DNA of 64,000 nt from Escherichia coli. Lineage in GTDB: Bacteria; Pseudomonadota; Gammaproteobacteria; Enterobacterales; Enterobacteriaceae. A model generated the notes under the pieces. The model made no database searches. It saw only the letters and a list, made by a program, of their open reading frames with translations, and had not been told where the DNA came from. This document shows, in pieces, positions 61,929-63,755 of the stretch (position 1 is its first letter; each line of letters starts with the position of its first letter). The stretch is from NCBI RefSeq assembly GCF_045037415.1, contig NZ_CP173438.1; one strand, given 5' to 3'. Position numbers and translations under genes: made by a program.

Positions 61929-62178
61929 TTTTTTAACCTCAAGGTGAGACGTTTGCCGACTATAGTACGTCACAGAGCGGTACGGTGAAATTAGCAAAAT
62001 GTGCAAAGTCTTTTGCGAATTTAGCAAAAGTCTGATCTTTCTCTGATTCACCGATGCGGGATAAATATTTTCTGAAAATGACAATACTTAAATCAACTTC
62101 CCATAAGCTCCCACAGGAGAGATGTATTATGCAAATGATACAGGAGTTTTTCGGAAAAAATGATTATGGAGAATATAT

Positions 62179-62658
62179 ATGTCAAATATGATATACTTAT
62201 CAATTAAAGGGAAAATACAAGGTTTGATCTCTGAGGGTTGTGGTTCGTATGCATCTATTGGTAATAAATATCAAATAAATCATGTGGATGAAATTTTTGT
62301 TTTACAGTTCGACCATTCTTTAAGTCGAGAGTATAATGTAGTGCATCACCCCATAAAATTTTACAAGCCAATAGATAAATCCTCCCCTTTATTAAATGCC
62401 GCTCTTTCTGAAAATGAAGAGTTATCAGCTGTATTTAATTTTTATAGAATTAATTCTGGCGGTTGTATTGAAAGGTTTTACACAATTGAATTGCAAGGAG
62501 CACATTTATCGAATATTCTGACATGTTATCCACACTCAATTACACATGCGGGTAATCAGCCGGAAGAGGTCATTGTTCTTAATTATAAAAATATAACATG
62601 GAAGCACCATATCGCGAGTACGGAATCATATAGTTGTTGGGAAGAAAGGATTTTTTAA
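62179..62658 (+). CDS. hcp: Hcp-family protein (type VI secretion tube protein TssD), orphan copy
   Basis: 159 aa ORF with SD GGAGA; segments IYLSIKG, HHPIKFYKPIDKSSPLLNAALSENEELSAVFNFYRINSGG and EEVIVLNYKNITWKHHIASTESYSCWEE align with canonical Hcp motifs (TPFTFTKEIDSSSPYLYKA..., EFKWYRINDAGQEVEYF, ELRYEKITWTYKDGNIIHSDSWNE); AT-rich. Confidence 0.8.
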   Translation: MSNMIYLSIKGKIQGLISEGCGSYASIGNKYQINHVDEIFVLQFDHSLSREYNVVHHPIKFYKPIDKSSPLLNAALSENEELSAVFNFYRINSGGCIERFYTIELQGAHLSNILTCYPHSITHAGNQPEEVIVLNYKNITWKHHIASTESYSCWEERIF

Positions 62659-62660
62659 AT

Positions 62661-63371
62661 ATGAAAAGCGATCTCACTATAAAAAATAGATATTGTACAA
62701 TTCCACAAGCGAAGTTCCGTAAATGGGATGAAATGGACGTTTTACTCTGGAAGTTAGGAAAAAATGATTCGCGTCGCCGTTCAGGAGTATATTATTTAAA
62801 TGCTTATAAAGATGCATATGTACAATATAATAGAGACAAAATAATTAAATATGCATACGCCGCTGGAATTCGTCCAGAGTTACTGGGCGGCGTGGCCTGG
62901 ATTGAGTCAGGAGGTATGCCTGAAAATTATAAGTTTCAGATATATGAAACAAAAAGAATGATCGGATTGTTAGATATGCCTGAAAATAAAACATCATTTG
63001 GCTCAATGGGTATACAAATACGAACCGCAGCGATTACTCTAGGTCTAGACCCTTCAGAATTAACTACCAGAAATCAGTTAGAGTTAGCGACATGCCTAAT
63101 GGAGGATGATTTTACCTTTCAAATTGCTGCTACTTATTTAAGAGATCTTGTTCTTTTTGATTATCCCTCTTCGGCAACACTGTATATGACGAATGAGCAG
63201 TATATTATGGCTGGTATTAGATATAATCGTGGTGTTGAACGAGATTTGGGTTTTTTTATTTGTTTAATTAATAATTTGCCTGCACGTGATACAGATGATT
63301 ATAAATTCATCTCTTATGGTATGAGGTTGTTAGAGATTAGAGAACATATCAAAAAATTGATTAATGAGTAA
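62661..63371 (+). CDS. Putative Hcp-associated effector, lysozyme-like / lytic transglycosylase-like
   Basis: 236 aa from the ATG two nt after the hcp stop; motifs in lytic-transglycosylase order: VAWIESGG, IGLLDMPENKTS, GIRYNRGVE; AT-rich. Confidence 0.55.
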   Translation: MKSDLTIKNRYCTIPQAKFRKWDEMDVLLWKLGKNDSRRRSGVYYLNAYKDAYVQYNRDKIIKYAYAAGIRPELLGGVAWIESGGMPENYKFQIYETKRMIGLLDMPENKTSFGSMGIQIRTAAITLGLDPSELTTRNQLELATCLMEDDFTFQIAATYLRDLVLFDYPSSATLYMTNEQYIMAGIRYNRGVERDLGFFICLINNLPARDTDDYKFISYGMRLLEIREHIKKLINE

Positions 63372-63377
63372 TCAGAT

Positions 63378-63710
63378 ATGTTAAAAAAACAACTACTATC
63401 AATATTTGAAGCACTATTATATATAATGCTTACTTATTGGTTAATAGATTCTTTTTTTGCTTTCAATAAGTATGACTGGATGCTTGAGTCGGGAGACAAT
63501 ATTTGCAGTATACCTTCTGTTTCAGGCGAAGATCGTATATTACAAGCAATGATTGCAGCATTTTTTCTTCTGACACCACTTATTATTCTTATCTTAAGAA
63601 AACTCTTTATGCGGGAAATGTTCGAGTTTTGGCTATATGTATTCTCGCTCGTTATTTGTCTGGGTTGTGGTTGGTGGCTTTTTTGGGGACGGTTTATATT
63701 TTGCTATTAG
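63378..63710 (+). CDS. ygiZ: Small three-helix inner membrane protein, candidate immunity protein; positional equivalent of K-12 ygiZ
   Basis: 110 aa ORF with three hydrophobic segments; immediately downstream of the putative effector on the same strand; same size and position relative to qseC as the K-12 ygiZ gene (identity not sequence-verified). Confidence 0.55.
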   Translation: MLKKQLLSIFEALLYIMLTYWLIDSFFAFNKYDWMLESGDNICSIPSVSGEDRILQAMIAAFFLLTPLIILILRKLFMREMFEFWLYVFSLVICLGCGWWLFWGRFIFCY

Positions 63711-63755
63711 TAAAGTCTATGAGAGTCGTTTTAACGGCTCTCATAGACAGAGAAG

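Follow-up and report, generated by a model that had tools for sequence, protein, structure and literature searches.

The 64,000-nucleotide stretch of Escherichia coli DNA analysed here (contig NZ_CP173438.1 of assembly GCF_045037415.1; hereafter the window) carries between the genes mdaB and qseC a cassette of three co-directional open reading frames (ORFs; 62179-63710), which are separated by spacers of 2 nt and 6 nt: an hcp gene for a tube protein of type VI secretion systems (T6SS), a gene for a candidate toxin (ORF2), and ygiZ. The ORF coordinates, with the same calls in RefSeq, bear out an earlier reading of the DNA from its letters alone (the sequence-only reading), which had described three tightly spaced genes for proteins of 159, 236 and 110 amino acids at this site. 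The AT-richness that it had noted is equally real, the composition profile giving a G+C content of 0.28-0.37 over ~62000-63650 as compared to ~0.47-0.55 in the flanking mdaB, ygiN and qseC DNA. The interval is made up as follows.

61347-61928, minus strand: mdaB, left flank.
61929..62178, plus strand: mdaB-hcp intergenic region, presumed promoter region of the cassette (junctions by blastn).
62179-62658, plus strand: hcp (tssD), 159 amino acids, T6SS tube subunit, presumed carrier or chaperone of the adjoining toxin.
62661-63371, plus strand: candidate cargo effector gene (ORF2), 236 amino acids from the ATG that is used by RefSeq too; "hypothetical protein" in RefSeq.
63378-63710, plus strand: ygiZ (DUF2645), 110 amino acids, three-helix inner-membrane protein, candidate immunity protein.
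63715-63748, no strand: 11-bp perfect inverted repeat GTCTATGAGAG...CTCTCATAGAC, read from the sequence, between the convergent ygiZ and qseC.
From 63756, minus strand: qseC, right flank, convergent with ygiZ.

The inverted repeat is kept in the K-12-type allele of the locus also and is a possible bidirectional terminator, which the terminator scan missed because a T-run is absent. The stop codon of ygiZ is directly followed by a second in-frame TAA. A promoter consensus scan of the mdaB-hcp region found no promoter upstream of hcp.

A stretch of 50,000 bases of the window is identical (100.000%) to E. coli strain 4/1-1 (NZ_CP023844.1), whose annotation lists the triplet as "Hcp family type VI secretion system effector", "hypothetical protein" and "ygiZ: DUF2645 family protein". 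Besides the cassette hcp, no T6SS core gene was found in the 64-kb window by tblastn with 16 T6SS proteins, nor in the annotation of the 50 kb of identical sequence, in agreement with the sequence-only reading on this point.

An orphan Hcp protein

That ORF1 is a genuine Hcp/TssD protein is near certain. It matches the Hcp family PF05638 (E=8.1e-20, residues 6-143) and, over its full length, TIGR03344 (TssD) with 198.8 bits, above the curated cutoff of 58.9. Its AlphaFold 2 (AF2) model has a mean predicted local distance difference test score (pLDDT) of 66, and the top Foldseek matches are all solved Hcp structures (6a2v, E=4.5e-11; Pseudomonas aeruginosa Hcp3, 3he1; Vibrio cholerae Hcp, 5mxn; enteroaggregative E. 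coli Hcp1, 4hkh), so that P. aeruginosa Hcp3 is among its nearest solved relatives. Profile searches and predicted fold thus uphold the initial identification of this gene as hcp. The protein is 29-32% identical to the Hcp of the T6SS cluster that resides elsewhere in NZ_CP023844.1. A search of E. coli for DNA paralogues of the orphan hcp, made in order to find the cognate T6SS, returned none above ~65% identity.

The second gene encodes a candidate peptidoglycan-cleaving toxin

ORF2 has no match in Pfam, even at E<=10, and none in NCBIfam. A profile built from 24 orthologues finds no significant match among the sequences of the PDB (best phiKZ034, E=0.36), and hhalign gives a probability of 1.2% against the SLT family of the effector encoded in the resident T6SS cluster, one SLT subfamily being compared. 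The AF2 model is all-helical (pLDDT 73, predicted template modelling score 0.72; residues 1-26 and 86-114 below 50) and has a lysozyme-like alpha-helical fold of the GH23/SLT-like kind, with matches to MltE- and EtgA-type enzymes. MltE ranked first in Foldseek with a probability of 0.95, yet at E=0.3 and TM scores of 0.4-0.5. This predicted fold lends support to the "lysozyme-like motifs" that the sequence-only reading had remarked upon in the 236-residue protein.

The alignment of the 24 orthologues shows invariant W80-I-E82, T111-S-x-G-S, Q119 and Y188-N-R-G191; S83 is conserved and varies in a few of them. A glutamate equivalent to E82 is invariant also in 66 distant relatives. The order and spacing of these motifs resemble what we take to be their counterparts in the family 1 lytic transglycosylases, namely the E-S, G-L-M-Q and A-Y-N-x-G motifs, and Glu82 would be the putative catalytic glutamate. 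Because a significant sequence match between ORF2 and SLT is absent, this assignment draws on the fold and on the position of the motif.

The N-terminus of ORF2, MKSDLTIKNRYCTIPQAKFRKWDE, is hydrophilic and shows neither a signal peptide nor a lipobox. The gene has the layout of a cargo effector, in that it lies next to hcp, lacks a Sec signal and is followed by a small co-directional gene, and this gene arrangement is kept at all 16 related loci. In terms of the model structure ORF2 is a candidate SLT/goose-lysozyme-like toxin cutting the glycan strands of peptidoglycan.

A toxin role is strongly supported by the domain architectures in which the ORF2 domain is predicted to occur. When 1.84 billion representative proteins, clustered at 50% identity, were searched with the profile, 374 clusters fell into the family at E<=1e-3, and 241 did so at E<=1e-10. 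Many of these have the domain at the C-terminal end of proteins that are 300-935 residues long. According to Pfam scans of 66 long members, the partner domains are eCIS_core, the core domain of extracellular contractile injection systems (eCIS) (12 of the 66), OmpA (5), PAAR (3-4), PG_binding_1 (2-4), Ntox3 (1-3), Phage_Mu_F (MuF; 1) and RHS repeats (1); SLT itself is matched by one member at E<=1e-3 and by nine at E<=0.1. In addition, the ends of Rhs cores are seen at the start of two members (P0155 and P0158). These architectures point to a cargo domain of the polymorphic-toxin type that has an affinity for peptidoglycan, and they define a hitherto unannotated toxin domain family of 374 clusters that appears to be used by T6SS, Rhs, MuF and eCIS delivery systems.

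Small membrane proteins follow the domain outside the Hcp-linked cassettes too. One member (P0122) combines PAAR with the toxin domain (E=3e-49 to the profile) and is directly followed by a 100-residue DUF2645 protein, which scores 21.9 bits with the YgiZ hidden Markov model (HMM) as compared to a maximum of 7.1 among 120 shuffled controls. Another N-terminal variant of the toxin domain precedes a DUF2645-like protein of 11.7 bits, and small three-helix proteins also come after the domain on a Cronobacter plasmid (9.0 bits), at an Rhs locus (an uncalled 102-residue ORF), at one further locus and on a Streptomyces plasmid. With the YgiZ HMM the partners in Streptomyces and at the loci L030 and L032 are indistinguishable from shuffled sequences and have size and topology alone in common with YgiZ. 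In two of the contexts read, one Rhs fusion and one eCIS locus, no small three-helix partner was present.

The Streptomyces case is the plasmid of Streptomyces sp. NBC_01201 (L025 2731-4887), on which the toxin domain is the C-terminal part of a 460-residue protein; its gene is preceded by one for a 151-residue protein and followed by one for a 103-residue protein in which at least two hydrophobic segments stand out clearly. The 151-residue protein is taken to be WXG100-like from its N-terminal sequence, which suggests that the toxin domain may also be used by a Gram-positive toxin-delivery system.

The fold matches to MltE and EtgA-type enzymes are likewise what would be expected if ORF2 were a housekeeping enzyme that remodels peptidoglycan so that a T6SS or other envelope machinery can be assembled, as do MltE, TagX, VirB1 and EtgA, with YgiZ as its anchor or regulator, and some relatives do carry OmpA or peptidoglycan-binding domains or lie inside eCIS loci. 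We give this explanation little credence. ORF2 has no signal peptide or lipobox and its N-terminus is hydrophilic, the module adjoins T6SS core genes at none of 17 loci, the modules to which the domain is found fused include PAAR and Rhs, which enter other cells, and ygiZ persists alone in strains without a T6SS such as K-12.

YgiZ, a candidate immunity protein

On one point the sequence-only reading has to be corrected, in that the third gene is not new as a gene. ORF3 is the K-12 gene ygiZ, a member of PF10840/DUF2645 (E=7.8e-11) whose function is unknown. Its description as a 110-residue three-helix membrane protein, by comparison, is borne out by the three hydrophobic segments in the hydropathy profile. 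Conservation among 12 aligned orthologues is highest in the loop N30-K-Y-D-W-M..G-D..C43-S-I-P (residues 30-47) and in the C-terminal G-W-W-x-F-W-G-R....C109, and both C43 and C109 are invariant. Topology prediction by the positive-inside rule places the loop (residues 30-53) as well as the C-terminus in the periplasm, and because both would be located there a C43-C109 disulfide is plausible. What makes YgiZ a candidate immunity protein is its genomic context. In K-12, ygiZ has its own promoter, which is activated by BglJ-RcsB (PMC3950696), and overexpression of the gene raises tolerance to the terpene sabinene, growth under stress being improved and the cells not being killed (PMC7181518).

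A three-helix protein of about 100 residues beside a signal-less enzyme of lysozyme fold is at the same time the classic picture of a holin/endolysin pair, as in phage-type lysis or "type 10" secretion, where YgiZ would pass the muramidase across the inner membrane of the producing cell. Here, however, the enzyme precedes the membrane protein and is itself preceded by Hcp and not by phage genes, the PAAR- and Rhs-fused versions of the domain have kept the same partner, ygiZ stands alone in ~61% of E. coli, and its overexpression improved growth under stress instead of being lethal (PMC7181518). Such a pair is very improbable.

The triplet in other genera

The order Hcp (159 residues)-toxin (~238)-DUF2645 (~110) is found in 16 of 16 non-E. 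coli loci of close relatives, and these loci are of quite different kinds. The triplet lies between pagP and an EamA gene on the Pectobacterium chromosome, near traI and colicin genes on a Serratia conjugative plasmid, and together with integrase and insertion sequence (IS) genes on an island in Chania; it is also present in Buttiauxella, Pseudocitrobacter and Citrobacter werkmanii. On a Rahnella megaplasmid it is intact although the identity of the toxin is just 40%. No T6SS core genes were found in the flanks of 17 triplet loci. The genome of Serratia sp. H1w contains two diverged copies of the whole triplet (L017 and L019). In Buttiauxella gaviniae (L018 10752-11041) the ygiZ homologue is split over two frames and the hcp and toxin genes look intact.

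DUF2645 genes begin 2-30 nt after the toxin domain in Escherichia, Citrobacter, Pseudocitrobacter, Pectobacterium, Serratia, Chania, Buttiauxella and Rahnella. Since DUF2645 proteins follow Hcp-linked, PAAR-fused and other variants of the domain, it is the toxin domain that YgiZ tracks and not Hcp. This bears on the question of whether YgiZ might be a protein of envelope stress or membrane homeostasis that is unrelated to the toxin and owes its downstream position to accident. Its own BglJ-RcsB-activated promoter in K-12 (PMC3950696), the sabinene tolerance conferred by its overexpression (PMC7181518) and its retention without the toxin in most E. coli would all be in keeping with such a role. 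However, an accident is hard to reconcile with a close linkage in eight genera and with the recurrence of DUF2645 after PAAR-fused and other variants, at unrelated sites and on plasmids, and we regard this explanation as distinctly unlikely.

Identities to the proteins of the window range, among the related loci, from 55 to 76% for Hcp, from 55 to 73% for the toxin and from 28 to 64% for YgiZ. As estimated between Escherichia, Citrobacter and Pseudocitrobacter, Hcp has a ratio of nonsynonymous to synonymous divergence (dN/dS) of 0.06-0.14, the toxin one of 0.07-0.10 and YgiZ one of 0.23-0.32. Purifying selection acts on all three genes, of which ygiZ evolves fastest, as is typical of immunity genes. 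In C. werkmanii and Pseudocitrobacter the cassette occupies the same mdaB-qseC interval as in E. coli, and its synonymous divergence at this site, which is saturated, is of the same order as that of qseC and qseB. Being syntenic and comparable to qseC and qseB in synonymous divergence, the cassette is old and vertically inherited at this site and not a recent import between mdaB and qseC. Among other genera it has changed its position.

Three states of the locus in E. coli

The distribution in E. coli was determined among 5426 complete genomes, the numbers of genomes with ygiZ only and without ygiZ being obtained by difference. Single copies of hcp and the toxin gene are present in 1261 (23%) and ygiZ in 4598 (85%); ~3337 (~61%) thus have ygiZ only, as K-12 does, and 828 (15%) have neither the cassette nor ygiZ. 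In 1260 of the 1261 carriers hcp and the toxin gene are covered to 80% or more. At >=99% identity these include CFT073, ATCC 25922, BEN2908, A0 34/86 and strains of sequence type (ST) 131, while a ~97% group includes O121:H19. The interval is accordingly not universal in the species, and the statement in the sequence-only reading that K-12 has no Hcp at this position proved right, as a K-12-like laboratory strain has ygiZ alone at the mdaB-qseC site.

In the K-12-type allele the left flank is common up to 62106 and the shared sequence resumes at 63368, with 131 nt of AT-rich unrelated sequence in between (blastn junctions). When this replacement (L002 1307-1437) was searched for traces of the two lost genes, tblastn with eight orthologue pairs and sensitive blastn both yielded just noise, and it has no similarity to any cassette gene or retrieved locus. 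It is located within the mdaB-ygiZ spacer, the fragment used in the study of the BglJ-RcsB-activated ygiZ promoter (PMC3950696). The orphan YgiZ of the K-12 type differs from the window copy in 9 of 110 residues (dN/dS 0.23, from few sites). In the empty allele 62033 is joined to the stop codon of qseC at 63756 (blastn).

Decayed forms of the cassette exist as well. Strain 1449 carries IS1 inside hcp. A Citrobacter-like metagenomic sequence (L034/L035 2198-3211) has a stop at about codon 31 of hcp and an in-frame deletion that joins W154 of Hcp to D23 of the toxin, and an in-frame deletion in an E. coli metagenomic sequence (L036 836-1813), in which ygiZ is called from Met17, joins residue 100 of Hcp to C12 of the toxin. 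These metagenomic forms sit at the same mdaB-qseC site and are reported by gene callers as Hcp-toxin "fusions".

The polymorphism between toxin plus antidote, antidote only and neither may have a bearing on which E. coli lineages of the gut are able to kill one another or to resist, and lineages of extraintestinal pathogenic E. coli such as CFT073 (ST73) and ST131 are among those that carry the toxin gene.

The resident T6SS of the matching genome

The T6SS of the strain was read in NZ_CP023844.1, the genome that matches the window. The cluster lies at the metV tRNA island (3,144,722-3,185,736), ~338 kb from the cassette. It begins with tssB, tssC, tssK, tssL, tagL, hcp, clpV and three vgrG genes with M23, Tle1 and SLT effectors, and continues with tssM, tssA, PAAR, tssF, tssG, tssJ and tssE. 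Its tssM is split by ISEc12, an IS21-family element, into pieces of 1584 bp and 1767 bp (3170688-3176606). ISEc12 in tssM is a marker of ST131 clade C/H30 and is considered to have put out of action the one T6SS that these strains possess, because a second tssM was not found (PMC10711316). The split in NZ_CP023844.1 closely matches this event, and the strain is probably of the ST131-C type with a dead T6SS. In ST73 and ST95 the tss region is reported to be consistently present (PMC10711316), and CFT073 (ST73) carries the cassette.

The sequence-only reading had left a choice between a cargo module for a T6SS encoded elsewhere and a remnant, and both fit NZ_CP023844.1, with its cluster ~338 kb away and its tssM interrupted. 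Taken as a functionless and decaying remnant, the cassette would be cargo stranded after loss or inactivation of the T6SS. The broken tssM of the matching genome, the loss of hcp and the toxin gene, or of all three genes, from most E. coli, and the decayed forms (stop and in-frame deletions, IS1 in the hcp of 1449, the frameshifted ygiZ of B. gaviniae) would agree with this. Then again, hcp and the toxin gene remain at least 80% complete in 1260 of 1261 carriers, the dN/dS ratios are low (0.06-0.14 in Hcp and toxin, 0.23-0.32 in YgiZ), intact triplets reside on plasmids and islands of other genera, B2 lineages with an uninterrupted tss region carry the cassette, and the loss of attack in ST131-C is recent and lineage-specific. 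A remnant is, in our view, quite unlikely. ST131-C has kept the cargo although its T6SS is broken.

Proposed function of the cassette

We consider it probable that the cassette is an auxiliary, orphan T6SS cargo module composed of hcp, a toxin gene and an immunity gene. The three genes would be co-transcribed from the AT-rich mdaB-hcp spacer and might be subject to H-NS-type silencing, as perhaps is K-12 ygiZ, which BglJ-RcsB activates. Hexameric rings of the dedicated Hcp would hold the 27-kDa signal-less toxin in their lumen, and the loaded rings would enter the tube of a T6SS encoded elsewhere. Upon firing, the toxin would reach the periplasm of a neighbouring Gram-negative cell and there cleave the glycan backbone of peptidoglycan by means of Glu82, resulting in cell wall damage. 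YgiZ, residing in the inner membrane, would neutralise the incoming toxin in sister cells through its conserved and probably disulfide-stapled periplasmic loop. K-12-like strains would have lost hcp and the toxin gene and kept ygiZ as an orphan immunity gene. In NZ_CP023844.1 the module probably cannot attack and at most protects, because the only T6SS cluster found there has its tssM split by ISEc12. The proposal gives the K-12 gene ygiZ, and with it the Pfam family DUF2645, a concrete candidate function.

Several points weigh against this interpretation. Toxicity, T6SS-dependent secretion, binding to Hcp and neutralisation by YgiZ are all inferred, and the literature search found no experimental data on T6SS-dependent export or toxicity of ORF2, many subscription journals being outside its coverage. 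ORF2 itself has no significant sequence match to SLT (none in Pfam; hhalign 1.2%), and its AF2 model is of moderate quality (pLDDT 73). With just 29-32% identity between the orphan Hcp and that of the resident cluster, co-assembly with the resident T6SS is putative. To our knowledge, the immunity proteins that counter peptidoglycan hydrolases of T6SS are either soluble in the periplasm or lipoproteins, and a polytopic membrane protein with a loop of ~25 residues would be unusual in this role. The partners in Streptomyces and at two other loci show no detectable homology to YgiZ. Finally, the sole phenotype reported for ygiZ, terpene tolerance, is unrelated to T6SS (PMC7181518).

The membrane-embedded nature of the partner leads to a wider possibility, which we put forward as speculative and, as a whole, unlikely. 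Three-helix proteins of the YgiZ/DUF2645 type may be a general immunity class for a widespread and so far unnamed SLT-like toxin domain whose site of action is the outer side of the cytoplasmic membrane, its substrate being for example lipid-linked or nascent glycan strands and not the mature sacculus. A toxin acting at the cytoplasmic membrane would explain why the protector is embedded in the membrane from enterobacteria to Streptomyces. If so, K-12 ygiZ would be an orphan antidote, and the locus would mark a line of T6SS compatibility within E. coli, with toxin carriers (B2 strains included), the ~61% that have ygiZ only and the 15% without ygiZ as its parties.

Other accessory regions of the window

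The window contains further accessory DNA. An iron-uptake island (~52236-61027, parE to ygiN) comprises genes for a TonB-dependent siderophore receptor, a four-gene FecCD-type ATP-binding cassette (ABC) transporter and a MurR/RpiR regulator, and a sharp, short dip in G+C to 0.283 at 56000-56300 corresponds to its divergent promoter region. In a K-12-like strain this island is absent and parE directly adjoins ygiN; in a bovine strain without the whole ygiZ cassette the MurR gene is still present. Two further accessory blocks lie amid core genes at ~34437-45538, the first with an aryl-sulfate sulfotransferase and DsbL- and DsbI-type oxidoreductases, the second a four-gene chaperone-usher fimbrial operon.

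Relation to known systems

The cassette would represent a new effector-immunity family of a known kind, in which the individual roles are candidate ones. In the literature searched, which left many subscription journals uncovered, we found no description of the cassette, no mention of DUF2645/PF10840 and no link of ygiZ or the mdaB-qseC site to T6SS. Its designation as an uncharacterised system therefore stands for the toxin family and for the role of YgiZ, neither of which is described in the searchable literature, but not for Hcp, which is annotated, or for ygiZ, which is a named gene. The hcp2B gene of avian pathogenic E. coli belongs to another locus, hcp2B-vgrG2.

In proposed function the cassette resembles Tse3/Tsi3 (Tge1/Tgi1) of P. 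aeruginosa and Tge2/Tgi2 of P. protegens, which also pair a T6SS peptidoglycan glycoside hydrolase with a cognate immunity protein; here the hydrolase would be delivered as Hcp cargo, akin to orphan hcp-effector islands. ORF2 has no detectable sequence similarity to Tge1-3 and by sequence is not a member of that class. Tsi3 and the Tgi proteins are soluble periplasmic proteins or lipoproteins. The partner in the cassette, however, is a polytopic inner-membrane protein, and the cassette has its own dedicated Hcp, far from any T6SS cluster.

The family 1 lytic transglycosylases (GH23; Slt70, MltC, MltE and MltF; SLT, PF01464) are alike in predicted fold, whereas ORF2 has no export signal. Membership of ORF2 in the Pfam SLT family (PF01464) was considered and failed the sequence test, just 1 of 66 distant relatives matching at E<=1e-3. 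WP_000764086.1, the VgrG-linked SLT-domain effector in the T6SS cluster of the same genome, is likewise a putative effector targeting peptidoglycan glycans and has been named lytic transglycosylase (PMC10711316). ORF2 is unrelated to it in sequence (BLASTP E=1.2; hhalign 1.2%) and is linked to an Hcp at an orphan site, as opposed to a VgrG in the cluster.

With respect to delivery, the nearest parallels are the Hcp-linked cargo effectors and Hcp-ET proteins of the Enterobacteriaceae (Ma et al. 2017, in the part relayed by 10.1101/2024.03.05.583533) and the Hcp3-Tce1 complex (PDB 9qpe), where, as here, an orphan hcp outside the main cluster specifies one toxin. In Hcp-ET proteins the toxin is fused to the C-terminus of Hcp, whereas in the cassette the hcp ORF ends with a stop codon and the toxin ORF begins after a further 2 nt. 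The toxin domains known from Hcp-ET proteins are nucleases, a phospholipase or a peptidase and not an SLT-like enzyme. Assignment of the cassette to Hcp-ET was rejected, since in the window, as at all intact loci, Hcp and toxin are encoded by two ORFs, and L034 and L036, in which they are fused, have come about by deletion or nonsense mutation.

Finally, ygiZ in the strains without the toxin recalls the orphan T6SS immunity genes (Kirchberger et al. 2017, as far as relayed by PMC6730261), which are likewise kept without the cognate toxin, presumably for protection against toxin-carrying kin. Those described in the part of that work relayed there are located within T6SS clusters or auxiliary arrays, whereas ygiZ is a single, core-like chromosomal gene, present even in strains that may be without any T6SS, such as K-12.

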